A DNA stretch of 44,288 nt from a virus. The stretch covers positions 1-44,288 of IMG/VR virus record IMGVR_UViG_3300045996_000964, one strand, 5' to 3'. The position numbers were made by a program, and so were the translations under genes. This document shows positions 8,935 through 33,224 of this stretch, one piece after another (positions within the stretch are counted from its first letter, which is position 1; each line of letters begins with the position of its first letter). The notes below the pieces were generated by a model that was not told the origin of the DNA, ran no database searches, and worked only from the letters and a program-made list of their open reading frames with translations.

Positions 8935-8957
8935 TAAGTGCTTGATCTGCCGTGGGT

Positions 8958-8983: not shown

Positions 8984-8984
8984 C

Positions 8985-10980: not shown

Positions 10981-11325
10981 GTGGCGCAACCTAGCAACAG
11001 ACACCCTACGGCAACCCGCAACGCTCGCCAGTTCGGCCGGCCGCAAGGCCTCGCCACAAACGCCAGCTGCGCGGGTTGCCGCAAGGTTGTCTCAATCTGG
11101 TCACCAGTGCCGCCCACACCGGGACGGCGGGCATCGAAGCGCGAGCGCGTCAAGTTCGCCATTGGTGGCCAGATTGAGCCAACCTTTCGGACAACCACCA
11201 TGCTCTGCCCTGAACCAATCCAGCCGCGCCGCTGGCGCAACGTCTGCACCTTCTGGCGCTTCGTTACAAGCCCGACAACTTCGCTGGTCGCGATGTTCGC
11301 CATCGTGGCCATTGCTGCGCTCTGA
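10981..11325 (+). CDS. possible early ORF (GTG start, 114 aa, C-terminal TM segment)
   Basis: GC3 is high, and its TGA (11323-11325) is the TGA of motif B copy 11322, a pattern seen for several real genes. The R/P/T-rich composition and lack of a clear SD keep this doubtful. Confidence 0.2.
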   Translation: MAQPSNRHPTATRNARQFGRPQGLATNASCAGCRKVVSIWSPVPPTPGRRASKRERVKFAIGGQIEPTFRTTTMLCPEPIQPRRWRNVCTFWRFVTSPTTSLVAMFAIVAIAAL

Positions 11326-11335
11326 TCTATCCACA
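11322..11335 (+). promoter_or_regulatory. motif B copy (ctgatctATCCACa)
   Basis: 24 nt upstream of ATG 11358. Confidence 0.4.
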
Positions 11336-11357
11336 AGGTCAACTCTTGGAGTTCGTC

Positions 11358-11501
11358 ATGAATGAGCATCCGGTCGCGACTGCCAACGCCAACGCTCGCG
11401 AGGCGTGGGCCGAAGAAATCCGCCAGCTGGCCATTGTCGAGCTTCGGCAGGCTGAGCGCCGCGCCGCCTTCACTGGTCGCCGCTTGAAGACCACCAACTA
11501 G
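11358..11501 (+). CDS. hypothetical early protein (47 aa)
   Basis: TGGAG SD lies 8 nt upstream. Sequence: MNEHPVATANANAREAWAEEIRQLAIVELRQAERRAAFTGRRLKTTN. Confidence 0.5.
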   Translation: MNEHPVATANANAREAWAEEIRQLAIVELRQAERRAAFTGRRLKTTN

Positions 11502-11513
11502 GAGTGCGCCACC

Positions 11514-11663
11514 ATGGCCACCAACATTCTCTCCACCTATCCAGCCGCTCGCCGCACCAACGTCGCCCGCAACATTCTGGCCTCGGTCTTCAGCTGCCCG
11601 ATCACTTGGGCGCTCGCCTCGGCCGCCATGTGGGCGCCGTTCCTCATGTACTTCGTCAGTTGA
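11514..11663 (+). CDS. hypothetical small membrane protein (49 aa)
   Basis: GGAG lies 9 nt upstream of ATG 11514. A hydrophobic segment is present (ILASVFSCPITWALASAAMWAPFLMYFV). Confidence 0.5.
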   Translation: MATNILSTYPAARRTNVARNILASVFSCPITWALASAAMWAPFLMYFVS

Positions 11664-11717
11664 CCTATCGCCTCGGGCCATCTGCGGGTGGCTCGCACGA
11701 TGGGCCAATTCTGCGTC

Positions 11718-11731
11718 CTGATCAATCCACC
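11718..11731 (+). promoter_or_regulatory. motif B copy (ctgatcaATCCACc)
   Basis: 20 nt upstream of ATG 11750. Confidence 0.4.
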
Positions 11732-11749
11732 CTGTCGAAAGGTGACGCC

Positions 11750-12460
11750 ATGGAACGCTACCCTGGCAAGCTCCTGAACCTGGACGCCAACGCGAAGACC
11801 GTGAAGGGCCAGAAGAAGGGTTTCAAGACCGCCATCCTCTACTTGGCGCCCGTCAAATTGTCGGGCTTCCAGGTCTGCCCGATGGCTAGCAATGGCTGCG
11901 CCGCCGCGTGCCTCAACACTGCCGGCCGGGCTGGCGTCTTCAAGGCGATCGAGAAGGCGCGCATTGCGAAGACGCAGTTCTACTTCAGCAACCGCGAGGC
12001 CTTCATGGCTCAGCTGGTCAGCGAGATTTCGCGCTTCGTCGCCAAGACCCGCCGCGAGGGCTTCGAGCCTGTGGTCCGCCTCAACGGCACGTCGGATATT
12101 CTGTGGGAGCGCGTCACGGTCAACGGCGCGCCCAACATCATGAGCCTGTTTCCTGACGTGACCTTCTACGACTACACCAAGCACATCCCCAGCAAGCGCG
12201 CCAATCTGCCAGCCAACTACAGCCTGACCTACAGCTACTCGGATGATCCGGCCGCGCTGGTCCGCTCCGCCGAGGCTCTGTCGCTGGGCTGGAATGTCGC
12301 CGTGGTGTTCCGCAATGCCCTGCCGCACGACTTCCTGGGCCGCCTCGTGGTCAACGGCGACGAGAGCGATCTGCGCTTCGCAGACGAGCGCGGCGTGGTC
12401 GTCGGGCTCAAGGCCAAGGGCAAGGCCAAGACCGACACTTCAGGCTTCGTCGTCGGCTGA
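11750..12460 (+). CDS. conserved early phage protein with a Cys cluster (CPMASNGCAAAC); possibly GP88-like family
   Basis: 236 aa with a well-formed ORF and high GC3. The family assignment is from memory only. Confidence 0.7.
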   Translation: MERYPGKLLNLDANAKTVKGQKKGFKTAILYLAPVKLSGFQVCPMASNGCAAACLNTAGRAGVFKAIEKARIAKTQFYFSNREAFMAQLVSEISRFVAKTRREGFEPVVRLNGTSDILWERVTVNGAPNIMSLFPDVTFYDYTKHIPSKRANLPANYSLTYSYSDDPAALVRSAEALSLGWNVAVVFRNALPHDFLGRLVVNGDESDLRFADERGVVVGLKAKGKAKTDTSGFVVG

Positions 12461-12470
12461 TCAATCCACC
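12457..12470 (+). promoter_or_regulatory. motif B copy (ctgatcaATCCACc); its TGA is the stop codon of the preceding gene
   Basis: 20 nt upstream of ATG 12489. Confidence 0.4.
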
Positions 12471-12488
12471 TTGTCAGGAGTTGCCAAC

Positions 12489-12773
12489 ATGGACGCCTAC
12501 ACCAACGCCTTCGCCACGCTGATCCGCGAGACCGTGACCGATCGCATCGTGGGCGAGAGCCGCGCCGGCTACCCCTTGGGGACCACCAATCGGTCCTTCG
12601 ACGCGATCACCGCCGAGCTGATCATGGCCAATTGGGATCGCCTCGCCGCCGGCCCCGGCACGATCGGCCAGCTGGTCGACCGTATGTGCGGCGTCGAGAA
12701 GCGCCCGGAGTACCGCCCCGAGGGCGCCCGCACGTGGCGCACCGCCTCGGGCCACCGTCGTGGCCGCCGCTAG
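12489..12773 (+). CDS. hypothetical early protein (94 aa)
   Basis: CAGGAG SD is present; ATG 12489 to TAG 12771-12773. Confidence 0.6.
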   Translation: MDAYTNAFATLIRETVTDRIVGESRAGYPLGTTNRSFDAITAELIMANWDRLAAGPGTIGQLVDRMCGVEKRPEYRPEGARTWRTASGHRRGRR

Positions 12774-12784
12774 GGGAGGATCAC

Positions 12785-12970
12785 ATGCTGTTCCATCCTG
12801 TCGCCTACTACCTGCGCCACGCGGCCGAGGCCTTGGAGCGCGCCATTCGCGAGCGCGCCGCCGGCCGGCCCTGCCACCCGCCGCTGAGCACCGCCGCCGC
12901 CTACCTACGGGTCGCCATCAAGGCCCGCGCCTGGGCGGCCGACGATTGGGCCACCTTCCACCGGTTCTAG
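12785..12970 (+). CDS. hypothetical early protein (61 aa)
   Basis: GGGGAGGA SD lies 5 nt upstream of ATG 12785. Confidence 0.55.
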   Translation: MLFHPVAYYLRHAAEALERAIRERAAGRPCHPPLSTAAAYLRVAIKARAWAADDWATFHRF

Positions 12971-13042
12971 AGCACCGAAGGCCGAGCGCCGCGAGTGAGA
13001 CGCGACGCTTCCCTTTGAGGCTCACCCGCTCAGGAGATCACC

Positions 13043-13237
13043 ATGAGCATCCGCGTCCGCTACCTGCCCACCAATGACGCTTGGTGCGTCGTGGTCGGAG
13101 GCACCGACATCCTGACGCTCGACCGCTTCCAGCGCGGCAAGCGCCTGTTCAGCACCCGCGAGGAACTGGTCGAGGCGCTCGACATCTGCGGGCTCGGCGT
13201 CCGCGACAACGGCACCGTCTACAGCGTGGAGGCCTGA
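13043..13237 (+). CDS. hypothetical early protein (64 aa)
   Basis: CAGGAGA SD lies upstream of ATG 13043. Confidence 0.6.
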   Translation: MSIRVRYLPTNDAWCVVVGGTDILTLDRFQRGKRLFSTREELVEALDICGLGVRDNGTVYSVEA

Positions 13238-13239
13238 GC

Positions 13240-13515
13240 ATGGAAGCCTTCGAGGTTCACATCCTGGTCCGCGAGGGCAACACCGTGGTCTGGCGCCCGG
13301 TCAGGCCGAGCGGCGCGGCCGAGCCCTACCGCTACCGCACCCGCGACTGCGCGAGCTACTGCAACTCGCACCAGTTCGTGCCGCAGGGCTGGTGCATCGT
13401 CGAGGTCGAGGCCGAGCCGAACATGCCCCTCATGTGCCCGCGCCAGCGCCGGCTCGCTGACCCGTCCGTCCGGGACTGGTGGTTCACCCCGCGCACCACA
13501 ACCCCGGAGGCCTGA
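13240..13515 (+). CDS. hypothetical early protein (91 aa)
   Basis: GGAGG lies 9 nt upstream of ATG 13240, and the gene follows the previous stop directly. Confidence 0.6.
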   Translation: MEAFEVHILVREGNTVVWRPVRPSGAAEPYRYRTRDCASYCNSHQFVPQGWCIVEVEAEPNMPLMCPRQRRLADPSVRDWWFTPRTTTPEA

Positions 13516-13517
13516 CC

Positions 13518-13715
13518 TTGGCTGACGTCGCTGTTCACGACCATGGCTCGATCGTGATCCTGGTCCCGCTCACCGATGCCGCTGGCGACTTCTTCGACGA
13601 GCGCCTGCCCGATGATTGCCCGATGTGGGGCGCAGGGTACGCCGTCGAACGCCGCTACGCCGCGGACATCCTGGAGGGGCTCAACGAGGAAGGGCTGGAG
13701 TTCGAGGTCTCATGA
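13518..13715 (+). CDS. hypothetical early protein (65 aa; TTG start, with GTG 13479 as an alternative)
   Basis: GGAGG lies 7 nt upstream of TTG 13518. The protein is acidic. Confidence 0.5.
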   Translation: MADVAVHDHGSIVILVPLTDAAGDFFDERLPDDCPMWGAGYAVERRYAADILEGLNEEGLEFEVS

Positions 13716-13843
13716 ACAAGCGCACCACCTGGCGACGCAACCCGGTCGCTCGTGCGCTGCGGGTAGCCAAGCCGAAGGTGGTCCGCAGCCGCGTCAAGTA
13801 CACCCGCAAAGCCAAGCAGAAGGAGCGCGCCGCATGTCGCTGA
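13712..13843 (+). CDS. very basic 43-aa peptide, possibly ArfA-like (alternative ribosome rescue factor)
   Basis: ATGA overlap with the upstream stop. The sequence MNKRTTWRRNPVARALRVAKPKVVRSRVKYTRKAKQKERAACR contains N-P-V-A-R-A-L ... K-V-V ... Y-T-R-K-A-K, recalling the ArfA pattern NAxxALxxxPLFRxRVxxxKKGKGSYxRKxK. Confidence 0.45.
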   Translation: MNKRTTWRRNPVARALRVAKPKVVRSRVKYTRKAKQKERAACR

Positions 13844-13935
13844 CCATGGAGCTGCACGATCGCTGCCTGATCCACGCCGACAAGATGGAAGGCGAGGGCT
13901 TGATCCGCGCGATCGGGGCGCCCTCGTCCGCGTAA
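13834..13935 (+). CDS. hypothetical peptide (33 aa)
   Basis: AAGGAG lies 8 nt upstream of ATG 13834. It is the last ORF of the early + strand operon. Confidence 0.35.
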   Translation: MSLTMELHDRCLIHADKMEGEGLIRAIGAPSSA

Positions 13936-13950
13936 TAACCCTCGTCCCAT

Positions 13951-14559
13951 TCAGTCCCCCACGTTGAGGATCGTAACTACCCCCGTCATCACGCAATCGT
14001 AGTCGGGGTGGATGTTCATTGCGACCAGCGTACTGCCGCCGTCGACCGTCAGCACCTCTCCGGTCGGCGCGAGGGCGGAACCTCCAAACGCCCCCCCAAG
14101 CTCCGGTCCCGAGTTGGTGATCCCGCCGATCGCCTGCTCGCCCGCGGGCAGGTCGAACAAGTTGAAGCGCGTCGGGTCGATGGCCTGCGTTATAGCCCAG
14201 CCATCTACGTCGCTGCGGATGAGCAACCGCGAGCGCGGCAAGCCCGAAGCGGGTGAGGGAAAGCACCGCGCGACCACTTCAAGCGGGCCATTCTTCCCGA
14301 CCACGATATCGGGATCACCTACTATCATGGCGACGGAGAACGGAGTTTCAAAAGCCGATGCGCCAATCGTCACCTGCTCGCTCCCGCGGGGACATTCCGA
14401 GCGTAGAGGTTCGTCGCCAAGCTGGAGCTGTACAAGCCGACCATTTCGCAGGCAACCGGTCAGTTGGTCTTCAGCCTTTGCGTCATGGCAATAAAAGGTG
14501 ACGGCCGCCAGACAGCAGGAAACAGCTAAGTCTAAGACCCGGCGAGTAGTCATTGCCAT
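13951..14559 (-). CDS. secreted hypothetical protein (202 aa) with Sec-type signal peptide
   Basis: GGGAG lies 5 nt upstream of ATG 14559. The N-terminus MAMTTRRVLDLAVSCCLAAVTFYCHDAKA-EDQ is signal-peptide-like, and the mature part looks beta-rich. Confidence 0.65.
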   Translation of the reverse strand: MAMTTRRVLDLAVSCCLAAVTFYCHDAKAEDQLTGCLRNGRLVQLQLGDEPLRSECPRGSEQVTIGASAFETPFSVAMIVGDPDIVVGKNGPLEVVARCFPSPASGLPRSRLLIRSDVDGWAITQAIDPTRFNLFDLPAGEQAIGGITNSGPELGGAFGGSALAPTGEVLTVDGGSTLVAMNIHPDYDCVMTGVVTILNVGD

Positions 14560-15181
14560 GTGCTCCCAGCTAATGGCCAGACGTTGGTTACAACCGCTCG
14601 TCAGCTTGGCATAAAGTCTAAACTGGGATTCCCCCCGTTTGCGGCTTCCGAAGCCCAATCATTGCATTTTACGCCCCCTGCCGCAAGACTTCATCTCGCC
14701 GATCCCCTACCAGGGCTACAACACGGTGCTCGGCTACATGGCCACGCACTTCCCCGCCGAGCTGGACCTGATGGACCTCTCGCCCGAGGTCACCAATGCG
14801 GGATGGCTGGGCGCTCAATCACCACTGCGCGAGGGTCGGCCGGCCGGTCTACAAGGTCGAGGCCCCGCGGTTCCTCCAGGAGGAGGGCGTCCAGGAGGTA
14901 ACGCCTACCCGAAGGGAGCTGCTGTCGGCGCATCCGAGGCTGAGGCAGCCTGAGAATGTTGCAAGAAGGCCACAACCGTGGCTATTACACAACAGCCCGA
15001 CCGCCACCTATTGGGGCACAACAGGGGCTGACCACATAATGCGCGATGCCTAATAGTTGGGCATTTTGGGGGGTGACGGGGTAAAGTGACGGCATACGGC
15101 CTGGTGGAACAGTTCCCCCTTGCCAACCGGCGAGGGAACCACCACCTTCCCGCAATAAGCTGCACCCCGGAGGTACAGACG

Positions 15182-15526
15182 ATGAAGAACGGCACCATGC
15201 CACTGTGGAAGATGTTCCAGGCGGTCGAGGAGTTCCGCAAGCTGGATCAGGAGCTGCCGACGCAGACCGCGAACACCTTCCTCTACATCACGCTGCATGA
15301 GGGCTGCACGCTGAAGGACATAGCCGAAGCCCTCGGCGTGGCTCAGTCGACGATGTCAAGGAACGTCTCGGCGCTGAGCAAGATGCACCGACTACGAAAG
15401 CCAGGGCTCGACCTGGTGAAGGCTACCGAGGACCCCTACGAGCGGCGGCGGAAGATCGTGACGCTCACGCCCAGGGGCAGGCAACTCAAAGATCGCCTGC
15501 TGGCGATCGCAGCGGATGGGAAGTGA
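15182..15526 (+). CDS. MarR/winged-helix-type transcriptional regulator (114 aa)
   Basis: GGAGG SD is present. An HTH-like segment (CTLKDIAEALGVAQSTMSRNVSAL) is followed by a wing-like DPYERRRKIVTLTPRG, as in MarR-family proteins. Confidence 0.6.
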   Translation: MKNGTMPLWKMFQAVEEFRKLDQELPTQTANTFLYITLHEGCTLKDIAEALGVAQSTMSRNVSALSKMHRLRKPGLDLVKATEDPYERRRKIVTLTPRGRQLKDRLLAIAADGK

Positions 15527-15529
15527 CAG

Positions 15530-15949
15530 ATGTTCACCTGGTACAAGGAGATCCGCAAGCTCGGCGCTGTATTCGCTGAGTTCCCTACTGAACCGGGGCG
15601 GCGGTTCATGGATGCCTACCGTGAGGATGGCGAGCTGTTCCTGTGGGTCGGCCGCTTCCACATGATCTGCTCCAGTGCCCGGCGCATCGCGCGTCAGGGC
15701 ATAAGCATGGCGGCAGCGGTTCTCGGCTTAATGTGGACAGAGACGGGCGCGATCAGCCTCGCTCTGCCCTCCATCCCGAAAGCATCTGCCGCCGCCCTCG
15801 TGGCCATGACCGCCGCGGGCGCGGCCGTCTCCGACGAGAGCCTGACCACCCCAGTACCGGTCGTGGAGAGCGCCACATGGCTGCTGTCGCCAGCCTCCGA
15901 CTTCCCCGTGGTATTCGTGCCCGAGGAGACAGCTTCCTTGTCTCAGTAG
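15530..15949 (+). CDS. hypothetical protein (139 aa) with a hydrophobic central segment
   Basis: The ATG is 4 nt after the regulator stop. It overlaps the integrase start by 73 nt. Confidence 0.4.
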   Translation: MFTWYKEIRKLGAVFAEFPTEPGRRFMDAYREDGELFLWVGRFHMICSSARRIARQGISMAAAVLGLMWTETGAISLALPSIPKASAAALVAMTAAGAAVSDESLTTPVPVVESATWLLSPASDFPVVFVPEETASLSQ

Positions 15950-16899
15950 GAGCGGGGCCAACCCGCCAGACCGCCACCTGTCACTCCCTCGAAGAGGCCC
16001 TCGCGAAGCAGCGGGAGCTGAAGGCTGGCGTGCCTTCGGCCCCCGCCGCCGAGGTCTGGACCCTCCAGCGGGCGTTCGACACCACCTGCCGGGTAGCCTG
16101 GGCTGACACCCGAGGTGAGCAAACCGCCAAGGTCAACGCACAGTCGGCGCTCGACCACTTCGGCCCGGAGACCACGCTCGATCGCATCACGACCGACGCG
16201 CTCGACGAGTACGTGCAGGCTCTCAAGGACGAGGGGCTGGCCAACGGCACCATCAACCGGAAGCTGGCCGCCCTGTCTAAGGTCCTGACCGTGGCCGTCG
16301 ACCGCCGAGGCGTGGCCTTTAAGCCGAAGCTGCCCCGCCTGCGGGAGGGTGTCGGCCGCATCCGATACCTCACGGCCGACGAGGAGCGCACCCTGCTCGG
16401 GCTCCTGACGCAGTGGTCCATGCCGGATCACGTCGATGCCATCACCGTGCTGGTCGACACCGGGCTCCGGGTCGGCGAGCTGTTCCGCCTCACCGTGCGT
16501 GACGTCGACCAGAAGCAGCGCCTGCTCCACGTGTGGGAGAACAAGGCCGACCACCCTCGATCGGTGCCGCTGACCAAGCGGGCCTACGAGGTGATCAAGC
16601 GGCGCATGCACCGCGCTGCCTACGGTGGCCCCAACCTGTTCCCCCACGACCACGACTGGCTGCGGCGCCCGTGGGACCGGGCGAAGGTCACCATGGGGCT
16701 CGGCGAGGACAAGCAGTTCGTGCCGCACGCCCTCCGCCACACCTGCGCCAGCCGCCTGGTCCAGCGCAGCGTGCCTCTCAAGGTGGTCCAGGAATGGATG
16801 GGCCACAAGACGATCCAGGTAACCATGCGCTACGCGCACCTGTCACCGACCAACCTGCTCGCCGCCGTAGAGGCACTTGAGGGCTCCGATGGCGTCTAA
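15877..16899 (+). CDS. int: tyrosine recombinase / phage integrase (340 aa)
   Basis: Catalytic signature DTGLRVGEL (Arg I), HALRHTCASRL (H-x-x-R) and MRYAHL (Tyr). GGAGAG lies upstream of ATG 15877, and the ORF is open from 15643. Confidence 0.9.
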   Translation: MAAVASLRLPRGIRARGDSFLVSVGAGPTRQTATCHSLEEALAKQRELKAGVPSAPAAEVWTLQRAFDTTCRVAWADTRGEQTAKVNAQSALDHFGPETTLDRITTDALDEYVQALKDEGLANGTINRKLAALSKVLTVAVDRRGVAFKPKLPRLREGVGRIRYLTADEERTLLGLLTQWSMPDHVDAITVLVDTGLRVGELFRLTVRDVDQKQRLLHVWENKADHPRSVPLTKRAYEVIKRRMHRAAYGGPNLFPHDHDWLRRPWDRAKVTMGLGEDKQFVPHALRHTCASRLVQRSVPLKVVQEWMGHKTIQVTMRYAHLSPTNLLAAVEALEGSDGV

Positions 16900-16943
16900 G
16901 CGCCGACCCGCGCGCACCGATTGCAGTCCTCACACGCAAGGAC

Positions 16944-17321
16944 CTATCCTTCCAAGAAGGCCTGCACATTCGCACGTACGGACGGCAGATCCCTTGTTTC
17001 GCACTCCCATAGCACCAGGACTGTCCAGCCAGACTCCTCGAGACGCGCCCTGAACAGACCATCTCTCTCAACGTTTCTTGCCAGCTTTTCGCGCCAGTAT
17101 GCGGCATTCGATGCAGGGAGCCTTCCGTCCCTGCAGGCCGGGTTCGGATGCTGGTGCCAGAAGCAGCCGTGAACAAAGATTGCCTTGCGCCTCCCTTGGA
17201 ACACCAGGTCCGGTGTGCCGGGCAGATCGCGCCTGTGTAGGCGATATCGGTACCCCATGTGGTGCACGAGCCGGCGCACAGTGAGTTCAGGCTTGGTGTC
17301 CCGACTCCGGATGGCGCTCAT
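16944..17321 (-). CDS. vsr: very short patch repair endonuclease (Vsr)
   Basis: RSRDTKPE, FVHGCFWHQH, NVERD and VLVLWECE match E. coli Vsr blocks. The upstream in-frame EQRSAN suggests the true start may be a non-ATG codon a few codons upstream. Confidence 0.9.
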   Translation of the reverse strand: MSAIRSRDTKPELTVRRLVHHMGYRYRLHRRDLPGTPDLVFQGRRKAIFVHGCFWHQHPNPACRDGRLPASNAAYWREKLARNVERDGLFRARLEESGWTVLVLWECETRDLPSVRANVQAFLEG

Positions 17322-17439
17322 ATTCGCGCTGCGTTGCTCTGAGGTTACGCGATCCAGACCACTTACCCTTCAACCTGAGCTTGACTCTGCCCCGAAGTGG
17401 TGCATCATGATTCATGCTGATGACGTCCGGAGTACGATC

Positions 17440-18711
17440 ATGAAACCAGCCTCAGCGTCGCTCTGCAAGCGAGAGGAGGTGTGGTCATTTTTCTCAGGAG
17501 CTATGGGCCTCGACCTCGGCCTCGAGCAGGCGGGGATTAGCCCGACGCTTGCTAACGAAATAGACAGCAATTGCCTCGGTACGATCAAGGCAACTCGACC
17601 CGATCTCCAGGTTCTTACAGAAAGCATAAGCGACCTCACCTGCAAAAAATTGCGGCAGGCGCGCCAGTTTTATGATGACGTCTACCTCATAGTTGGAGGT
17701 CCTCCTTGTCAGAGCTTTTGTTCAGGCGGGAAGAGGACATCACTGCGGGATACGCGTGGAAATCTTATCTATGAGTTTCTTCGGCTGATCTCGGAGGTGC
17801 GGCCACGTTTTTTCGTCCTAGAGAATGTTGCAAACCTCACAACCGCAGCCCTACGCCACCGCCCCATCGCCGAGCGGCCAGGCCAGCACTGGAGCTTGAA
17901 GCGGTACGATACGGAATGGCAGGACGGTGACGGAGCCGCACGTCCCCTTGATCCAGACGAACGGTCTGGTTCCGCGATCCGCTGCATTCTTGCGGACGTA
18001 GAGGCGCTCGGGTACCACGTGGTCTTCGGCGTGCTGGATGCCGCAGACTACGGCGCGCCGCAGCACCGCCTCCGTTTTGTGATGCTAGGCTCGCGAGAAT
18101 GGCCCCCGCCGTCCTTGCCCAGACCAACTCATGGTAAGGTAGGTTCTGGACTGGCTCCGTTCCGAACTGTCGGTGAGACGATTATGCACCTTAGGGACAA
18201 CCCTGGACCAGGTTCGGAGTATACGCCCGAGGTCAGGCGCTTTTTCTCGCTCGTGCCTCAGGGAGGGAATTGGCGCTCACTTCCGCGAAATCTACAACCT
18301 GATGCGCTTGGAGGTTCCTGGGCTGCGGGAGGTGGTAAGACAGGGTTCTACCGCCGGCTTGCCTGGGACACACCTGCTCCGACGATCACCGGTCGAGCTA
18401 ACCGGAAAGGTAGCGCCCTCTGCCATCCAGAGTTCGACCGCCCACTTTCTGTTCGGGAATGTGCCGCTCTGCAGGGCTTCCCAGGGGATTGGGAATTCGC
18501 CGGCTCCATGAACCCTCAGTACATGCAGGTTGGCAACGCCGTGCCGGTGGCGCTTGGCAGGGCTATCGGGGCGGCCATCCTACGACATGAAATGGAAGCT
18601 AGCTTACCAGCTGACCGCCGCGGACTGGACGTGAACGTCATGATGGCCACGGCCGTGGGGAGGCTCCGCGCCGCAGCCCGGAACAAGGTTAGCCGGCAGG
18701 CGGTAGCGTAG
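17440..18711 (+). CDS. DNA (cytosine-5)-methyltransferase
   Basis: Motif I FSGAMGLDLG, motif IV GGPPCQSFC, motif VI ENV, motif VIII QHRLRF, motif IX RECAALQGFP, motif X GNAVPV. GGAG lies 8 nt upstream of ATG 17440, and ATG 17407 is an alternative. Confidence 0.95.
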   Translation: MKPASASLCKREEVWSFFSGAMGLDLGLEQAGISPTLANEIDSNCLGTIKATRPDLQVLTESISDLTCKKLRQARQFYDDVYLIVGGPPCQSFCSGGKRTSLRDTRGNLIYEFLRLISEVRPRFFVLENVANLTTAALRHRPIAERPGQHWSLKRYDTEWQDGDGAARPLDPDERSGSAIRCILADVEALGYHVVFGVLDAADYGAPQHRLRFVMLGSREWPPPSLPRPTHGKVGSGLAPFRTVGETIMHLRDNPGPGSEYTPEVRRFFSLVPQGGNWRSLPRNLQPDALGGSWAAGGGKTGFYRRLAWDTPAPTITGRANRKGSALCHPEFDRPLSVRECAALQGFPGDWEFAGSMNPQYMQVGNAVPVALGRAIGAAILRHEMEASLPADRRGLDVNVMMATAVGRLRAAARNKVSRQAVA

Positions 18712-18730
18712 AAGCCTGACCTGAACCCGC

Positions 18731-19921
18731 ATGGTCGAATTCCTGCCGTCCAACCATGCTGTCCAGCGCATCAACCGGGAGGTGCAAGCCAGTCTTGTCC
18801 ACGTACAGCAGAATGCGTTCACGAGAGCGTTCCCGGACGCGCATGCATACTGCACCCGTGTGCTGGAGGACCTCAGGATCGGCATACCGTTGCCAGAAGA
18901 ACTGCGCGACAAGCCCGCGACGGATGTCTCCGATCTGACGTTCGCCGATCTTGAGAAGCTCTGGTCACAGTTAGTCAGGGCCGCAGGAACACAAGAACCC
19001 GGAGCTGGCATGCTCGCAGCCAGCTTAGCGCAACATTCACAGCTGCTGCGTGCATTCGAGGACCCCGCTTCCATGCTCGAATGGACCCTTACGAAGGTAG
19101 CTGGGATCGTAGAGGGTCTCCCGAGAACGGACGCAGACATCGAAGTCGGCTCCAATCCTGGAGATGTCTTGGACCCTTTCATCCTGGCCGCGACGCAAGT
19201 GCTCCTCTACAGCGGGAACTTCGAAGAGGCGATAGGGGGCACCGTTGCCCATAAAGCGCTGATGATGTTAGAGGATATGATGGGCCACCTCCACGAGGAG
19301 GTTTTGGGCCGGATGCGCGGTAATATGAAGGCGCCGGAGCCGCGGGGTGAGAACCAGGAACTTTATGACGCCTTTCTGAACCCCTTTCCAGGGGCGGATA
19401 TCATCCAGCCCCCGTTGCAGGCTGGCGAACCGCTTCGGTTGCATCAGGTGAAAAGCAAGACCGGTACGTTGAACTCCAGCGGTGGAGCGCGTCTGGCGGA
19501 GCAAATGCGGCAACTCCGAATGCGTTACAGCAGCGCGGAGATATATTCACACTCCTTGGTCGGCAGAACATTAAGAGGGCACCGGTCTAAGGGCGGTATG
19601 CTGAGAGTGGAACCTCAACTAATTGTGACCGTGGGCGAGACAGCGTTCCGCATCCTCACAGGAAGTAGCAATGGTGCCGAACTCCTCCTGCGGCTGTACC
19701 AAAACGCGTTTCGGATCGCTGCTGAAAGGTCAGGGTATAACGTGGGAGCCACCGCGGCTTTGATCACCCAGGCCTTCAGAGCGAAGGCAGACGCCGCGGG
19801 CGAGGGCTTCCTGGAACTCATGCTCCACGAGGTCACGCGTGGCGAACCGCGGGACCAAGACAGCCGCACGTACCAGAGCAGGACTAGGAGATTCTCTCGG
19901 GCCCCGCGCAAGCAGACTTGA
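18731..19921 (+). CDS. putative type II restriction endonuclease partner of the methyltransferase (396 aa)
   Basis: It starts 20 nt after the MTase stop on the same strand, in the same lower-GC block. It has a weak PD-(D/E)xK-like GAD-x15-QVK, but no family was recognised by eye. Confidence 0.45.
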   Translation: MVEFLPSNHAVQRINREVQASLVHVQQNAFTRAFPDAHAYCTRVLEDLRIGIPLPEELRDKPATDVSDLTFADLEKLWSQLVRAAGTQEPGAGMLAASLAQHSQLLRAFEDPASMLEWTLTKVAGIVEGLPRTDADIEVGSNPGDVLDPFILAATQVLLYSGNFEEAIGGTVAHKALMMLEDMMGHLHEEVLGRMRGNMKAPEPRGENQELYDAFLNPFPGADIIQPPLQAGEPLRLHQVKSKTGTLNSSGGARLAEQMRQLRMRYSSAEIYSHSLVGRTLRGHRSKGGMLRVEPQLIVTVGETAFRILTGSSNGAELLLRLYQNAFRIAAERSGYNVGATAALITQAFRAKADAAGEGFLELMLHEVTRGEPRDQDSRTYQSRTRRFSRAPRKQT

Positions 19922-19987
19922 TCTGCTGCCCCGCCGTGGCATGTTGCGTTGTTGCGGCGATGTTGCATCCGGGTGCGGATGCTGCGT

Positions 19988-20074
19988 GCCGGGGTGGCGA
20001 AATTGGTAGACGCACTGGACTCAAAATCCAGCGCCCGCAAGGGCTTACGGGTTCGACTCCCGTCCCCGGCACCA
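19988..20074 (+). tRNA. tRNA-Leu(CAA), class II, with encoded CCA
   Basis: Acceptor stem GCCGGGG/CCCCGGC; anticodon stem CTGGA/TCCAG with loop CTCAAAA (anticodon CAA); long variable arm GCCC-GCAA-GGGC; T arm ACGGG-TTCGACT-CCCGT; 3' ACCA. Confidence 0.9.
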
Positions 20075-20212
20075 CCCTCGACAGTCTCAAAATCTATCGC
20101 GCCCAGCTACGCACCTCTCCAACTGATCCCCTAACGTAGGCTTTCTGCCGGCTCCAGCCGGTTCGGACAGCCTTGCCCTGCTCCTATGCACCTTGCCAAC
20201 AGAGTGCATCGG

Positions 20213-20868
20213 TGGATGGACATGTTGCGTAATTTGTTGCGCGTTCCCCTTCCGTTCCAACAGGAGATCGAGATGTCCAACCCGGAAGGCCTGGTTCGTT
20301 GCCACCGACGTGTGTCGCTGCCTGGGCATCTACCTGGGCAGCGATGGAAATGTTCGAACCGAGCGGGTGAGCATCGGCTCGCAGAGGACGAATGCCGGCT
20401 TTGGAAGACCCCCACCGTGAGTGGGGGACTTGATCCCCGCGTTTGGCAGCTCCTACTGGTCTCCCAGAGCGGCCTCTACAAACTGATCATGCGCTCCGAC
20501 AAGCCAGCCGCCCGCCGGTCCAGGACTGGGTCACCCGTGAGGTCCTGCCGGCGATCCGCAAGACCGGCGTCTACATCACCGACGAGGTGCGCGCGCAACA
20601 CCCCGAGGCAGTCGCCGAGTTCGAGGCTCGGCTCGTGGCCAAGCTCCCCGATGCGGACGTCTGGACCAGCCTCAACCGCTTCCTCAAGGCCAAGGGCATC
20701 GAGCTGCCCATGCGCGATTACTGGATGGCGGTAGGCCAGCTCACCGAGCGGACCAAGACCAAGAACGCCAAGCGCTTCGGCCGCCTGAACCACGACACCC
20801 TCCTCTTCAGCGTCGCCGAGCTGGAGGCGGGGCACACCGACGAGCGCGCGTACCCCGAAGCCGCCTGA
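20213..20868 (+). pseudogene. Bro-N / antirepressor-type gene disrupted by frameshifts
   Basis: Bro-N blocks lie in three different frames: WFVATDVCRCLGIY (frame of 20193), LLLVSQSGLYKLIMRSDKPAA (frame of 20186) and QDWVTREVLPAIRKTGVYITDE (frame of 20443). Restoring one T at about 20519 would give KPAARRFQDWVT. Confidence 0.7.
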
Positions 20869-20888
20869 TCCAGGGCCATTCGTGTGCC

Positions 20889-20902
20889 CTGAACTATCCA
20901 CA
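20889..20902 (+). promoter_or_regulatory. motif B copy (ctgaactATCCACa) upstream of the RNA polymerase gene
   Basis: 34 nt upstream of ATG 20935, preceded by the inverted repeat cagggc-N9-gccctg. Confidence 0.4.
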
Positions 20903-20934
20903 TTGCCATCACTTCCACTGTCGTGAGGTTCCCA

Positions 20935-23433
20935 ATGGACGACGCCCTCATGCAACGGCAGGCCGCCCTTGAGGCGGAGATGCAGGGGCTCGGGACTGAG
21001 CAGTTCCGGGCTCGGCTCGCCACCGCGCGAGAGAACCGCGAAGAGAGCACCACGCCCTACGGACTTGACATGGTCAGCCGGGCGATCGAGCCCCTGGCCC
21101 AGTCGATCGAGGCCTTCATCGAGAAGGCCATGACCGGCGGCCGTGGCCGCAGGCACAGCGCCGTCAAGCACCTGTCCCTGATCGACCCGCAGGTGGCCGC
21201 CTTCATCATCATGAAGGTGGTCCTCGACGGCATCACCAAGCCCAACACTCCGGCCTCCAAGGTGGCGATGGCGATCGGCTACCAGCTGGACAACGAGCTG
21301 CACTACCAGGCCTTCGAGCAGCAGCAGCCGAAGCTCTACGGCAAGGTCGCCGAGAGCGTGCGCCGGTCCTCGCACCGGGGCTACCGCGAGAAGGTGATGA
21401 CCTACGCCGCCAACAAGTACGGCACCACGTTCGCCGGCATGTCCCAGCAGGAGAAGCTGCACCTCGGTATGGCCTGCCTGGACATGATGATCGAGACGAC
21501 TGGCTTCGCGGTCATCGAGACCACGCAGCTCAGGAAGGAGTGCAAGGTCCACCTGGTCCCGACCGCGAAGGCTCTGGATTGGATCAACGCGACGGTCTCC
21601 CGGTGCGAGCTGCTCTCCCCCATGCTGTTGCCGATGCTCGTTCCACCTAAGCCCTGGACCAGCCCCAACGAGGGCGGTTACCACACCAACCACGTCCGAC
21701 GTCGCCTGCTCAAGACGTCGAGCGGGCTGAACGCCACCCTCAAGAAGATGGCCGACAACTGGGAGGGCATGGCCACGGTGCGCGAGGCGGTCGAGCGCAT
21801 CGACAGGACCGGCTGGCGCATCCGGCAAGACGTGCTGGAGGTGGCCCGCTGGTACTGGGACGCCGGCATCACGGTCGGCAAGCTCCCGCCTCGGGATGAC
21901 GTGGCTCTCCCTCCCTGTCCGGTCTGCGGCCAGCAGCCCACGGGTGACCACGAGCACCTCCGGGACGAGGAGATCAAGAAGCTCTGGAAGCGGGACGCCG
22001 CTCGCATCCACGGCTACAACGCCAAGCTCAAGTCGAAGCGGCTCCAGGCCGGGAAGATCCTCTGGCTCGCCGACAAGTTCAAGGACGAGCAGGCGATCTA
22101 CTTCCCGCACCAGCTCGACTTCCGCGGGCGGGTGTACCCCATGCCCCTGTTCCTCCAGCCACAGGGGAACGACCTGGCCAAGGGGCTGCTGACCTTCGCC
22201 AAGGGCAAGCTGATCCTCGACGAGGTCGCGGCCGGATGGCTCATGATCCACGGTGCCGGCACCTACGGCTACGATAAGGTGAGCCTGGACGGGCGCATCG
22301 GCTGGGTCGTGGAGAACGAGGCCCGCATCCTCGCCTGCGCCGACGACCCGATCGTGGAGCGGTGGTGGACCGAGGCCGACAAGCCCTGGCAGTTCCTCGC
22401 CTTCTGCAAGGAGTGGGCCAACTTCAAGGACGTCGGCTACGGCTTCGTCTCGACCCTTCCGATCTCCCTGGACGGCAGCTGCAACGGCCTCCAGCACTAC
22501 TCGGCCATGCTGCGAGACCCGAAGGGTGGCAAGGCGGTGAACCTGGTGCCGTCCAACAAGCCGGCCGACATCTACCAGGAGGTGGCCAACGTCACGCTGC
22601 ACAAGCTGCGCCGTATCGTATCCACGCCGGCCACTAATGGCGACGAGGAAGCCGAGCGGGTGCTGGCCCAGCAGTGGCTGGACTTCGGGGTCACCCGTAA
22701 GACGACCAAGCGGCCGGTCATGGTGGTGCCCTACAGCGGCACCCGCCACGCCTGCCGGCAGTACACCCAGGACCACATCGAGGAGGAAGTGGAGGCGCGC
22801 AAGCTGCGAGACCCGAGCTACGTCTCGCCGTGGCCGCTGGGTGAGCTTCTCCAGCCTACCCTGTTCCTGACGCGCCTCGTCTGGACCGCGATCGGGGAGG
22901 TGGTCGTGGCCGCAAGGAAGGCCATGGACTGGCTCAAGAAGGTATCGGCCGCGGTATCCAAGGCCAACCTGCCGATCGAGTGGGTGACCCCCGCGGGGTT
23001 CCCCGTTCACCAGGCCTACTACGACACCAAGTCCAGGAGGGTGTTCACCAGATTGGGCGACAACATCCTCATGCCCCGTCTCCAGGAGTACCTGCCCACC
23101 ATCAACGCGAGGGAGCAGGGTAACGCCTTCCCGCCCAACTTCGTCCACTCCCTCGACGCCGCCGCCCTCCAGCTCTCGGTCTGCTACGCGGCGGACAACG
23201 GGATCGAGGAGTTCGCCATGGTCCACGACAGCTACGGGTGCCCGGCGGCCGACGCTGAGATGCTCGGCCAGTGCCTCCGCCTGGCGTTCGTCGAGATGTA
23301 CCAGGAGAACAACGTGCTGGCTGACCTCAAGGCCAACGTCGAGGCAGCTCTCGGCTCGCCCCTCCCGGAGCCCCCGGCGATGGGCACGCTGGACCTGGAG
23401 CTGATCAAGCAGTCCGACTTCTTTTTCGCCTGA
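20935..23433 (+). CDS. T7-like single-subunit DNA-directed RNA polymerase
   Basis: About 832 aa. It contains the palm motif FAMVHDSYG and a C-terminal ...DFFFA like the T7 RNAP FAFA end. GAGG lies 6 nt upstream of ATG 20935, and the ORF is open from GTG 20923. Confidence 0.97.
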   Translation: MDDALMQRQAALEAEMQGLGTEQFRARLATARENREESTTPYGLDMVSRAIEPLAQSIEAFIEKAMTGGRGRRHSAVKHLSLIDPQVAAFIIMKVVLDGITKPNTPASKVAMAIGYQLDNELHYQAFEQQQPKLYGKVAESVRRSSHRGYREKVMTYAANKYGTTFAGMSQQEKLHLGMACLDMMIETTGFAVIETTQLRKECKVHLVPTAKALDWINATVSRCELLSPMLLPMLVPPKPWTSPNEGGYHTNHVRRRLLKTSSGLNATLKKMADNWEGMATVREAVERIDRTGWRIRQDVLEVARWYWDAGITVGKLPPRDDVALPPCPVCGQQPTGDHEHLRDEEIKKLWKRDAARIHGYNAKLKSKRLQAGKILWLADKFKDEQAIYFPHQLDFRGRVYPMPLFLQPQGNDLAKGLLTFAKGKLILDEVAAGWLMIHGAGTYGYDKVSLDGRIGWVVENEARILACADDPIVERWWTEADKPWQFLAFCKEWANFKDVGYGFVSTLPISLDGSCNGLQHYSAMLRDPKGGKAVNLVPSNKPADIYQEVANVTLHKLRRIVSTPATNGDEEAERVLAQQWLDFGVTRKTTKRPVMVVPYSGTRHACRQYTQDHIEEEVEARKLRDPSYVSPWPLGELLQPTLFLTRLVWTAIGEVVVAARKAMDWLKKVSAAVSKANLPIEWVTPAGFPVHQAYYDTKSRRVFTRLGDNILMPRLQEYLPTINAREQGNAFPPNFVHSLDAAALQLSVCYAADNGIEEFAMVHDSYGCPAADAEMLGQCLRLAFVEMYQENNVLADLKANVEAALGSPLPEPPAMGTLDLELIKQSDFFFA

Positions 23434-23443
23434 TCCATCCATA
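23430..23443 (+). promoter_or_regulatory. motif B variant (ctgatccATCCATa); its TGA is the RNAP stop codon
   Basis: Immediately upstream of motif A copy 2. Confidence 0.3.
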
Positions 23444-23469
23444 TAGTCATCAGATGCCGCGGTGGCAGG

Positions 23470-23493: not shown

Positions 23494-23512
23494 ACGCAAA
23501 ACGGAGATCATC

Positions 23513-33215: not shown

Positions 33216-33224
33216 GCTCTCACT

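Follow-up and report, generated by a model that had tools for sequence, protein, structure and literature searches.

From the analysis of the window, i.e. the whole stretch of 44,288 nucleotides, we conclude that a temperate T7-like phage of the LUZ100, Pasto and HTVC019P type has its lysogeny module in the region around the integrase gene. The best explanation for the architecture of this module, which we consider likely to be correct, is tRNA-replacement ('tRNA-dependent') lysogeny at a composite attP, which would extend over about 320 bp (roughly 19924-20241) between the integrase and the polymerase genes. An attP core that mimics the anticodon stem-loop of a host tRNA-Leu(CAA) would be recombined by the integrase with the anticodon loop of the host gene itself. 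The host tRNA gene would thereby be cut in two, with the tRNA rebuilt at neither junction, and the intact phage tRNA-Leu(CAA) would land beside attR and supply the lost host function. After integration at the core, the RNA polymerase (RNAP) gene and the host-transcribed early/MarR-int operon would also be separated. Rather than being the integration site, the intact phage tRNA is probably a spare copy for the split host gene.

The window is a circularly permuted complete genome (bases 1-124 equal 44165-44288) and is therefore not an integrated copy. It has a GC content of 66% and a T7-like backbone comprising RNAP, T7-type terminase, primase-helicase, DNA polymerase A, portal, Gp10A capsid, nozzle and SSB. 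The single-subunit RNAP (20923-23433, + strand) shares about 42% amino acid identity with that of LUZ100 and is 83-86% identical in three IMG/VR contigs (L001-L003), which also encode integrases of 340-341 aa with 86-93% identity to that of the window. The first-pass annotation, which proposed that a T7-like phage carries a lysogeny-type module, is supported in this respect, and the regulator, the 139-aa open reading frame (ORF), the integrase with its R..HxxR..Y signature and the tRNA with encoded CCA were all found at or near the positions given there. Its premise that T7-type podoviruses are strictly lytic is outdated, since integrase-bearing MarR T7-like phages have been published (PMC10134795, PMC8776855).

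The MarR-like winged-helix regulator (114 aa, 15182-15526, + strand) lies in an ORF that opens at 15086 and ends at 15526, with a likely ATG start at 15182 preceded by GGAGG. It matches PHROG 9665 'transcriptional regulator' (E=3.7e-34), while its matches to Pfam MarR_2 and other HTH models are slightly below threshold, and it shares 52% identity with LUZ100 gp10, a protein annotated as MarR family, and 44% with the regulator of the TARA prophage described below. The 139-aa ORF (15530-15949, + strand), which has no match in Pfam, NCBIfam, PADLOC or PHROGs, is conserved in L001-L003 with 56-65% amino acid identity and shares 73 nt with the start of the integrase gene; the TARA prophage lacks it, and MarR abuts int there. 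The tyrosine integrase (340 aa, 15877-16899, + strand) is encoded in an ORF spanning 15643-16899, with a likely ATG start at 15877 as in the 340-aa homologue P0001. It matches Pfam Phage_integrase (E=1e-28) together with a SAM-like N-domain as well as PHROG 1 (E=1.5e-54), and its translation contains the catalytic residues R (in TGLRVGEL), HxxR (in HALRHT) and Y (in MRYAHL).

The stretch of about 3 kb that separates integrase and tRNA is filled by a cassette of lower GC content, which the first-pass annotation omitted: a Vsr gene, a C5 DNA methyltransferase gene and a 396-aa ORF. The content of this cargo slot is different in each relative, and in the window it is probably of alphaproteobacterial origin. 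The Vsr very-short-patch repair endonuclease (16944-17321, - strand) is identified by Pfam (4.7e-25) and TIGR00632 (134 bits, exceeding its cut-off), and the type II C5 cytosine methyltransferase (17440-18711, + strand) by Pfam DNA_methylase (1.4e-55), TIGR00675 and PADLOC MTase_II (6.6e-91). The methyltransferase ORF opens at 17185 with a likely start at 17407 or 17440, and the sole sigma-70-like match in the region (17381-17408) is located immediately upstream of this gene. The 396-aa ORF (18731-19921, + strand) has no family match in Pfam, NCBIfam, PADLOC or PHROGs; its 527 homologues are all annotated as 'hypothetical' and are mainly alphaproteobacterial, and the Dcm-ORF-Vsr trio is also found on a Mesorhizobium chromosome. 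Its AF2 model (pLDDT 64) has the restriction endonuclease EcoO109I as the best PDB fold match (E=2.6e-3, TM 0.31-0.41). Gene context and this fold match tentatively suggest a putative cognate type II restriction endonuclease.

Integrated relatives reveal where recombination takes place. A marine 75-kb contig, TARA scaffold_26, contains a whole T7-like prophage of 43.7 kb. At its attL, the 5' half of the host tRNA is followed by CTCAAAATCTG and the phage right arm towards RNAP; at its attR, MarR-int is followed by the intact phage tRNA, CTCAAAATCTG and the 3' half of the host tRNA. The rejoined host halves form a perfect tRNA-Leu(CAA) of 87 nt, while ARAGORN detects no tRNA at either junction alone. 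An attL of the same type is present in a Ferrovibrio MAG (146-kb contig), and attR-type junctions are present in an alphaproteobacterial MAG contig of 195 kb and in a Micavibrio MAG. In all five junctions (attR in L007, L015 and L016, attL in L045 and L047), the crossover lies at a separate copy of the anticodon loop and the intact tRNA is untouched. A search for integrated copies, as suggested in the first-pass annotation, yielded these relatives with a split host tRNA-Leu, but none of the window's own lineage (integrase identity >60%) in GTDB genomes, JGI metagenomes or IMG/VR. The mechanism proposed for the window's phage therefore rests on homology to relatives with integrases that are 44-54% identical, from which we infer that it integrates as these relatives do. 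The host tRNA-Leu(CAA) gene, already named as the target in the first-pass annotation, is supported as the likely integration site.

The lack of own-lineage integrated copies in the collections searched would also fit a module that is largely vestigial or permits transient integration only, in a phage that is lytic in practice and in which tRNA and attP persist without stable lysogeny. The window and L001-L003 are all free, phage-length contigs, and no stable lysogens were obtained for LUZ100 (PMC10134795) or cyanophages (PMC8776855). Moreover, a Bro-N/anti-repressor (Ant)-like gene (20292-20868, + strand; Pfam Bro-N, PHROG Ant) is degraded: its N-terminus is missing, and the intact L002 homologue used as tblastn query matched three different reading frames. 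However, these four genomes have integrase, regulator, tRNA and core intact, with a conservation that equals or exceeds the average across the genome. The same module also occurs in more distant relatives, which are found as complete prophages within long bacterial contigs, and restriction-modification cargo beside int would best suit expression from a resident prophage. We therefore regard a vestigial module as unlikely.

The tRNA-replacement reading depends on the anatomy of the proposed attP, which would consist of TGTTGCG-type repeats, tRNA-Leu(CAA), an 11-nt spacer, the core, a non-tRNA right arm and two further TGTTGCG repeats. The anticodon loop CTCAAAA of the tRNA recurs at 20086-20092, 11 nt past the tRNA end, where it is framed by imperfect inverted repeats in the proposed core CGACAGT-CTCAAAA-TCTATCG (20079-20099, + strand). 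In the window, CTCAAAATC occurs at 20020 and 20086 only, compared to 0.15 expected occurrences. A loop copy located 9-13 nt after the tRNA is also present in L001-L003, L007, L013 and L025, and the order of intact tRNA-Leu, 9-13 nt, loop copy and non-tRNA sequence is kept in phages with about 50% identical integrases (L013, L025) and on the phage-derived side of L007 (integrase 49% identical). The core is followed by a non-tRNA right-arm block (20100-20129, + strand, with CTACGCACCTCTCCAACTGATCC at 20107-20129), which hardly varies among the four close relatives, was found in the IMG/VR contigs L001-L003 only, and can be aligned to its right-arm counterpart in the reconstructed TARA attP.

The first-pass annotation had taken the tRNA itself as the obvious attP, in which case a crossover within the tRNA-Leu(CAA) gene would yield two complete hybrid tRNA genes. 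The tRNA indeed lies between int and RNAP, the usual place of attP in T7-like phages, it holds the same CTCAAAATC as the proposed core, and tRNA-Leu is the general attB of T7-like cyanophages and pelagiphages (PMC8776855; 10.1101/410191). Against this, the relatives cross over in the adjacent downstream copy in 5 of 5 junctions, leaving the phage tRNA untouched, and the window has the same copy. In addition, when compared with the anticodon arm of the reconstructed attB, the core agrees at 17 of 19 nt and the anticodon arm of the phage's own tRNA at only 12 of 19; the tRNAs of close relatives diverge by up to 20%, whereas the downstream core block is nearly invariant; and the tRNAs of Pasto and LUZ100 are oriented opposite to the candidate core. 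A crossover within the tRNA is thus improbable.

The arms of the proposed attP carry short repeats at conserved positions. On the + strand, TGTTGCG is present in four copies in 44 kb, all in two pairs flanking tRNA and core. The left (P) arm (19924-19986, + strand) contains TGTTGCG at 19942 and 19950, TGTTGCA at 19961, TGCTGCG at 19980 and TGCTGCC at 19924, and the right (P') arm (20223-20241, + strand) contains TGTTGCG at 20223 and 20235. The left-arm repeats are located at about -144, -136, -125 and -106 from the core, which is kept in L001-L003 and the reconstructed TARA attP as well as, in the form of TGCTGCG, in L013. Those of the right arm (+137 and +149) are kept in L001-L003, whereas TARA and L013 each have a single copy, at +146 and +140, respectively. 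Repeat positions (TGTTGC) to the left and right of the core are thus conserved among phages with integrases that are 49-93% identical, and the repeats would represent integrase arm-type sites. In L001, the RNAP start follows the right-arm repeats after about 40 nt, and it is equally possible that they are regulatory elements, i.e. MarR operators; an operator function is an alternative for the left-arm repeats, too.

The tRNA-Leu(CAA) (19988-20074, + strand) is an intact class II tRNA with encoded CCA according to ARAGORN and Rfam (RF00005, 60.6 bits; threshold 29 bits). Among 11 phage-borne homologues, stem positions are paired to 98.2% with compensatory changes in 16 of the 20 pairs, values reached by none of 500 shuffles, and intact phage tRNAs share no more than 64-66% identity with the displaced host tRNAs. 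From this low identity and the compensatory evolution across phage lineages, we conclude that these tRNAs are long-maintained phage genes and not recent captures, which contradicts the previously suggested capture by imprecise excision. Nor is a full-length tRNA unusual, as had been assumed: it was present in all relatives fetched as well as in LUZ100, Pasto and published pelagiphages, and is thus the rule in this clade. The anticodon carried equals the anticodon targeted in 11 of 11 cases, being CAA in the window, L001-L003, TARA and L015, and TAA in L013, L016, L025 and the candidate cores of Pasto and LUZ100. Phage tRNAs are often ascribed to codon supply or evasion of tRNA-targeting defences (PMC10865867), and the LUZ100 authors proposed imprecise excision (PMC10134795), but a tRNA unrelated to integration, be it a lytic translational helper, an anti-defence decoy or a functionless excision remnant, is very improbable, since UUG, the sole codon read by tRNA-Leu(CAA), accounts for merely 10 of 690 leucine codons (1.4%) in core phage genes, neither codon supply nor chance explains the match of anticodon and core loop, and the low host identity, the compensated cloverleaf and the core spacing of 9-13 nt across deep divergence do not resemble a recent decaying capture.

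Of the dual role previously considered for the tRNA, we thus retain the functional tRNA, which as a host-gene replacement comes close to our preferred explanation, and not the crossover site. The phage tRNA would have to be expressed and needed in the lysogen; the sequence upstream of it yielded no sigma-70-like promoter. Where UUG is also read by tRNA-Leu(UAA), as is established for E. coli leuX, tRNA-Leu(CAA) may be non-essential. For this reason, 'replacement' may improve fitness without being required.

The regulator-integrase-tRNA-Leu layout is not new, but common to LUZ100, Pasto and several pelagiphages. It differs from the integration of the cyanophages P-SSP7 and S-TIP37 and of the P4 type at leuX, with which it shares the order int - attP - RNAP and a tRNA-Leu attB (PMC8776855). 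There, attP contains an exact copy of part of the host tRNA (42-67 bp), the gene is regenerated and no intact phage tRNA is present, whereas the sequence following the core in the window is not a tRNA half and the host gene stays split in the relatives. The T7-like cyanophages integrate without lysogeny (PMC8776855).

tRNA-dependent lysogeny has been demonstrated in mycobacteriophages, e.g. Fionnbharth (Guerrero-Bustamante & Hatfull 2024, PMC10865867). The logic is shared: a tyrosine integrase, an attB within a host tRNA gene, pairs of arm-type sites flanking the core, and a common core of about 10 bp that cannot rebuild the tRNA, whose loss is complemented by a phage tRNA of the same isotype. 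These phages are, however, unrelated siphoviruses of Actinobacteria that use tRNA-Lys and other isotypes, and their tRNA is encoded at a distinct locus, whereas that of the window is embedded in an attP arm; the tRNA requirement was shown genetically there and is proposed here.

Closer parallels are found among HTVC019P-type pelagiphages, which like the window encode a tyrosine integrase upstream of RNAP and a full tRNA-Leu adjoining int. A full-length tRNA-Leu was published for HTVC011P, 025P, 119P and 200P (bioRxiv 10.1101/410191; Zhao et al., Environ Microbiol 2019). Their attP cores, 11-46 bp long, are found in the int-RNAP interval; integration splits the host tRNA mid-gene without rebuilding it, and the phage tRNA is 'likely used instead' (10.1101/410191). 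The pelagiphage attR recovered from metagenomes (integrase, intact tRNA-Leu, tRNA-Leu 3' end, host gene) corresponds to the structure of L007, L015 and L016. Differences include the SAR11 hosts, low GC content and anticodons TAG/TAA of the pelagiphages, compared to 66% GC and CAA in the window, and integration was shown by PCR and sequencing for the pelagiphages, but is inferred here. The MarR-like regulator, the TGTTGCG arms, the fixed tRNA-core spacing of 11-13 nt and the restriction-modification cargo are not described for pelagiphages.

LUZ100, the isolate with the closest RNAP (42%), co-transcribes a MarR-like regulator and an integrase upstream of RNAP, with a full tRNA-Leu adjoining int (PMC10134795), and has a candidate ACAGA-CTTAAAA element between int and RNAP. 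In contrast to the window, its tRNA-Leu(TAA) is located between MarR and int on the opposite strand, and a cargo slot is missing. Its authors explained the tRNA by imprecise excision, left attP undefined and obtained no lysogens (PMC10134795).

The Rhizobium/Agrobacterium phage Pasto (MT708545), for which lysogeny in its host has been reported (Boeckman et al. 2022, Virology 568:86, as cited in PMC10134795), differs from the window in its RNAP (40% identity) and integrase (34%), its tRNA-Leu(TAA), which is inverted relative to the core, its arm repeats (GTGTGCCA instead of TGTTGCG) and its cargo of SPFH and membrane proteins instead of restriction-modification genes. Its gene order is nevertheless near-identical, i.e. 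wHTH regulator, integrase, about 2 kb of cargo, a full tRNA-Leu, a small ORF and RNAP, and it harbours a separate anticodon-loop mimic (GGGGCA-CTTAAAA-TGCTCC) with direct repeats on both sides.

The window is a complete, circularly closed assembly of a T7-like genome with a unit length of about 44,164 bp and a GC content of about 66%, in which bases 1-124 recur exactly at 44165-44288. Since this 124-nt terminal overlap sits in the structural-gene region, away from the expected ends, it reflects circularisation of the assembly and not a true direct terminal repeat. The terminase end lies near 8.7 kb and is followed by the early genes, which places the physical genome ends probably near 8.8-9.2 kb and thus the lysogeny module in its canonical position, as the last part of the early region just ahead of the RNAP gene. 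The T7-like single-subunit RNAP (20923-23433), whose best isolate match is that of Pseudomonas phage LUZ100 (about 42% amino acid identity), is accompanied by a T7-type set of replication and morphogenesis genes comprising terminase, primase-helicase, family A DNA polymerase, portal, Gp10A-like capsid, nozzle and T7 SSB. The motif TGCGAAATACCTTGCCACTCAACCCCC occurs in intergenic positions before the early region (8957-8991) and before the structural genes (33224-33258), with 94% identity between the two copies and a weaker copy at 23469-23503; these repeats are probably promoters of the phage RNAP. A 482-aa ORF in the structural region (37025-38473) combines GDSL-like lipase/acylhydrolase and Laminin_G_3 (concanavalin-like) domains and may encode a tail-associated enzyme that deacetylates or degrades surface polysaccharide.

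The regulator, 139-aa ORF, tyrosine integrase and tRNA-Leu(CAA) that the first-pass annotation had listed are all present, and its observation holds with one omission, the content of the gap between integrase and tRNA. The MarR-like winged-helix regulator (most likely start ATG 15182) lies directly upstream of the integrase gene (int), matches PHROG 9665 (E=3.7e-34) and is 52% identical to LUZ100 gp10 ('MarR family'), while Pfam MarR models match just below the curated cut-off. The tyrosine integrase (Pfam Phage_integrase 1e-28, PHROG 1) most likely starts at ATG 15877, which gives 340 aa as in its closest homologues; its gene precedes that of the RNAP closely, with the same orientation, and its product is 38% identical to the integrase of LUZ100 and 34% to that of Pasto. 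With these two phages the window shares a T7-like genome, int before the RNAP gene and a MarR-like regulator before int. The 139-aa ORF (15530-15949), which contains an Ala-rich hydrophobic stretch and overlaps the integrase start by 73 nt, is kept only in close relatives, at 56-65% identity and thus below its neighbours, is absent from the prophage on TARA scaffold_26, LUZ100 and Pasto, and gave no family match in Pfam, NCBIfam, PADLOC or PHROGs. Between the attachment site and the RNAP gene (20292-20868), a Bro-N/anti-repressor (Ant)-like gene without its N-terminal part is broken up among three reading frames; L002, a relative, has an intact copy (227 aa), L001 has none and L003 has another ORF in its place, and its state in the window is due to pseudogenisation or to sequencing errors.

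The three closest relatives (IMG/VR contigs L001-L003) show synteny with the window (about 80-90% DNA identity), encode integrases 86-93% identical to that of the window and each carry a full tRNA-Leu(CAA) after int. Where more distant members of the integrase family (44-54% identity) occur on T7-like genomes, a tRNA-Leu with the anticodon CAA or TAA likewise accompanies int. Integrases about 50% identical to that of the window were also encountered on non-T7 integrative islands (L004, L005 and L009, the contigs of the integrase homologues P0023 and P0024), on which genes for resolvase, AAA_25 and AlpA are joined by type I R-M or PAPS-reductase genes and no tRNA lies within 10 kb. From this we conclude that the clade is not restricted to T7-like phages or to a layout in which a tRNA is swapped; these long contigs were otherwise uninformative.

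The tRNA-Leu(CAA) of the window (19988-20074; ARAGORN, Rfam 60.6 bits) shares its anticodon-loop string CTCAAAATC with only one other place in the 44 kb. The string occurs exactly twice, at 20020 within the tRNA and at 20086, where 0.15 occurrences would be expected by chance, and the second copy lies 11 nt beyond the tRNA 3' end. This second copy is embedded in CGACAGT-CTCAAAA-TCTATCG (20079-20099), an imperfect inverted repeat with a 7-nt centre, which is perfect in L003 (CGACAG / CTGTCG). An inverted repeat around a short centre is the usual form of a tyrosine-recombinase core. The order of tRNA, 9-13 nt and loop copy recurs in L001-L003, in L013 and L025 as more distant phages, and on the phage-derived side of L007, the attR end of the TARA prophage. 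The arm of the window core agrees at 17/19 nt with the anticodon arm of the alphaproteobacterial tRNA-Leu(CAA) reconstructed as attB, but at only 12/19 nt with that of the phage's own tRNA. Possibly, the anticodon stem of the phage tRNA is kept unlike the core so that the integrase spares this tRNA.

On the + strand of the window, TGTTGCG occurs four times, always in pairs (19942/19950 and 20223/20235), with the variants TGTTGCA at 19961 and TGCTGCG at 19980. Relative to the core, these repeats lie at about -144, -136, -125 and -106 on one side and at +137 and +149 on the other. L001-L003 and the reconstructed TARA attP keep these positions, as does L013 with the TGCTGCG variant; Pasto follows the same repeat logic with GTGTGCCA repeats. 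We infer that they are candidate arm-type sites of the integrase, which would give an attP of about 320 bp whose left arm contains the tRNA gene. Alternatively, the repeats could be operators of the MarR-like regulator, for which the position of the right-hand pair directly upstream of the RNAP gene speaks, and MarR operators have been proposed upstream of RNAP in related phages (PMC10134795). Matches in a promoter scan of the region were not above chance. If the core is the crossover site, the attL of an integrated window phage is predicted to consist of the host tRNA-Leu 5' half ending in CTCAAAA followed by TCTATCGCGCCCAGCTACGCACC, and the attR of GGCACCACCCTCGACAGTCTCAAAA followed by the host tRNA 3' half. 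The expected anticodon arm of the corresponding host tRNA-Leu(CAA) would read CGACAG[A/T]CTCAAAATCT[G/A]T.

The decisive junction evidence comes from the prophage on TARA scaffold_26 (75.5 kb). At its attR end (L007), the MarR gene, int and an intact tRNA-Leu(CAA) are followed by 11 nt and CCGT-CTCAAAATCTG, after which the anticodon-stem-to-CCA half of a different tRNA-Leu(CAA) leads into higher-GC DNA with folE. At the attL end (L045), 43.7 kb away, host genes precede the 5' half of a tRNA-Leu(CAA) (GCCCCTG...ACAGA), CTCAAAATCTG and phage sequence, in which a peptidase gene is followed by a T7-like RNAP gene. Joined together, the two host halves yield a perfect 87-nt tRNA-Leu(CAA) according to ARAGORN, whereas attL and the attR half gave no tRNA call; the common core measures 11 bp. 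The same kind of attL with the same host neighbourhood is found in a Ferrovibrio MAG (L047, 146-kb contig), and attR-type junctions are present in L016 (195-kb alphaproteobacterial MAG contig, anticodon TAA) and L015 (Micavibrio MAG, anticodon CAA), so that an attB inside a host tRNA gene together with a tyrosine integrase is seen in all four cases. Taken together, these junction sequences indicate that the integrase clade cuts the host tRNA-Leu at the anticodon loop without rebuilding it, and that a matching intact phage tRNA ends up beside attR.

The host neighbourhood shared by L045 (2383-4854) and L047 (6118-8328) comprises HNH, COQ7, DsbB and VTT-domain genes, from which we conclude that the TARA host was probably a Ferrovibrio-like alphaproteobacterium. 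The Ferrovibrio prophage has a strong intrinsic terminator (CCCCCGAGA...TCTCGGGGGTTTTTGTTTTT, L047 at about 9780-9830) about 50 nt beyond the attL core, where it separates the phage RNAP gene from the promoter of the host tRNA; the matching place of the window (20148-20166) contains only a short GC hairpin, CCGGCT-CC-AGCCGG. In lysogens, a terminator in this position may keep transcripts that start at the host tRNA promoter from running on into the RNAP gene.

These junctions also bear on the reading of the first-pass annotation, which took the tRNA itself as the obvious attP candidate. An intact tRNA used as crossover site would indeed make the attP one of the tRNA-regenerating type, but in the integrated relatives the crossover lies at the separate loop copy, with the intact phage tRNA beside attR. 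A classical regenerating attP of the P4 or P-SSP7 type was rejected for the window on two grounds: from 20093 onward, 3' of the core, the window has non-tRNA sequence, nearly invariant across four relatives, and neither junction is a tRNA in the integrated relatives. The window attP contains only a 7-9-nt loop copy whose flanks are not tRNA halves, and is, like the 11-bp TARA core, too short to rebuild a tRNA. No 3' tRNA fragment in the manner of an attL/attR duplication was found elsewhere in the window, whose sole large repeat is the terminal overlap.

Several lines of evidence concern the role of the intact tRNA. A comparison of 11 tRNA-Leu genes carried by phages found 98.2% of stem positions paired and compensatory changes in 16 of 20 pairs; none of 500 shuffles attained this, and in slid controls pairing drops to 36-48%. 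The carried anticodon equals that of the core anticodon loop in 11/11 phages and prophages, of which the Pasto and LUZ100 cores are only candidates; in the window, tRNA-Leu(CAA) and the CTCAAAA core accordingly agree in isotype and anticodon. UUG, the sole codon read by tRNA-Leu(CAA), accounts for 10 of 690 leucine codons in the phage core genes, which makes a codon-supply role in lytic growth implausible. The intact phage tRNA is a putative working replacement for the split host gene, and structural conservation together with the lack of a codon-usage need lends indirect support to the view that it would be needed for viable or stable lysogens. The first-pass annotation had considered capture of the tRNA by imprecise excision; identity between the phage tRNAs and the displaced host tRNAs is only 64-66%, which speaks against a recent event of this kind. 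Some relatives show oddities: the tRNA of L013 (5904-5988) has the unusual anticodon loop CCTAAAC, ARAGORN left the isotype of the L025 tRNA (1811-1896) undetermined, and in L029 (about 7110-7150) all that follows an integrase with 40% identity is a 5' half resembling tRNA-Leu(TAA).

The first-pass annotation overlooked that the gap of about 3 kb between int and the tRNA is filled by a lower-GC cassette of three genes. A Vsr endonuclease is encoded on the minus strand at 16944-17321 (Pfam Vsr 4.7e-25; TIGR00632 134 bits, above cut-off), followed by a type II C5 cytosine methyltransferase at about 17440-18711 (Pfam 1.4e-55, TIGR00675, PADLOC MTase_II 6.6e-91) and a 396-aa ORF at 18731-19921. 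Vsr repairs T:G mismatches arising from deamination of 5mC. The 396-aa product, whose family consists of proteins without annotation, mostly from Alphaproteobacteria, had no match in Pfam, NCBIfam, PADLOC, PHROGs or a PDB sequence search; a homologue lies within the same Dcm-ORF-Vsr trio in a Mesorhizobium chromosome, and the only notable, though weak, fold match of its moderate-confidence model (pLDDT 64) is the restriction enzyme EcoO109I (E=2.6e-3). It is a likely candidate for the cognate restriction endonuclease.

The distance between int and tRNA amounts to 0.44 kb in L001, which has no cargo, 3 kb in L002 and 1.9 kb in L003. In L002 the slot (11213-13941) holds a different, HTH-fused Dcm, a 223-aa ORF with a weak REase_II match and Vsr, in L003 (8224-9603) a 459-aa ORF without a family match in Pfam, NCBIfam, PADLOC or PHROGs, and in Pasto SPFH and membrane proteins. 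From this variation in content and length we conclude that the R-M cassette is cargo in a variable slot and not part of the recombination machinery. The presence of two independent Dcm and Vsr cassettes in the same slot suggests repeated acquisition of R-M systems by T7-like phages, and the int-attP gap may be a hot-spot in which different R-M or defence cassettes were gained independently in the window, L002 and L003. The idea that cargo and int form a separate island inserted in a phage tRNA was rejected, since int and tRNA adjoin each other in L001, where the slot is empty, and each relative has a different content there.

Searches by integrase in GTDB genomes, JGI metagenomes and IMG/VR retrieved no integrated copy of the window lineage, nor did a search of IMG/VR with the invariant right-arm block. 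Only three relatives of this lineage were found, all of them free contigs of phage length, and elsewhere no integrase match exceeded 60% identity; more distant clade members do occur as prophages. Against isolated phages, a search for near DNA matches to 14500-24000 gave nothing useful and a distant search with the attP segment gave only generic tRNA-Leu genes at 75-80% identity, and the phage tRNA had no close bacterial match (84% or less) in the plasmid/chromid set. The tRNA-Leu(CAA) anticodon arms of Sphingomonas and Sinorhizobium differ from the window core, whereas the Ferrovibrio/TARA-type arm resembles it. Homologues of the cargo, like the integrated relatives, come from Alphaproteobacteria; by these weak clues, the lineage is probably alphaproteobacterial.

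It is conceivable, and to us slightly less than an even prospect, that a fixed composite attP characterises the whole clade, in which an intact tRNA-Leu forms part of the left arm and stands at a distance of 9-13 nt from a core resembling the anticodon stem-loop of its own isoacceptor. The clade meant here is the large integrase family, for which more than 2,500 homologues were found, many of them on T7-like genomes of Alphaproteobacteria and beyond. If this holds, phages of the clade would always bring a replacement for the gene which they destroy on integration. The junctions in the relatives already indicate that an intact tRNA beside the integrase, which is naturally misread as the attachment site, is probably its companion instead, and they provide a rule by which attP can be located in genomes of this kind, namely a second anticodon-loop copy next to the phage tRNA. 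T7-like phages with a MarR-Int-tRNA module should not be presumed to be strictly lytic, for example in the choice of therapy phages, and the int-attP slot is where phage-carried defence or R-M cargo can be sought.

Integrase-bearing T7-like phages are documented, including a P. putida KT2440 prophage, cyanophages, pelagiphages, Pasto and LUZ100 (PMC10134795; PMC8776855; 10.1101/410191), and to these the window adds a high-GC, probably alphaproteobacterial lineage with temperate machinery. The unreported points are the phage tRNA anticodon stem that may be kept unlike the core and the int-attP gap as a possible cassette hot-spot; none of these findings overturns the current understanding. In the cyanophage/P4 type, attP contains a tRNA portion and the gene is regenerated, a defining feature which the window lacks. 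In pelagiphages, short cores between int and RNAP split the host tRNA mid-gene, the phage tRNA was suggested to be 'used instead', and metagenome fragments with the order 'integrase - intact tRNA-Leu - 3' end of tRNA-Leu - host' were described (10.1101/410191). The natural prophage junctions reported here support this tRNA-replacement model outside SAR11 phages and actinophages. The need for such a tRNA has been proven genetically in mycobacteriophages as 'tRNA-dependent lysogeny', whose authors asked how common it is beyond actinophages (PMC10865867); if the composite attP is indeed clade-wide, this genetically defined lifestyle would extend to Autographiviridae. LUZ100 and Pasto show the same regulator-integrase-tRNA-Leu-RNAP layout as the window, and from this layout and the pelagiphage and mycobacteriophage precedents we conclude that the window belongs to an already known kind.
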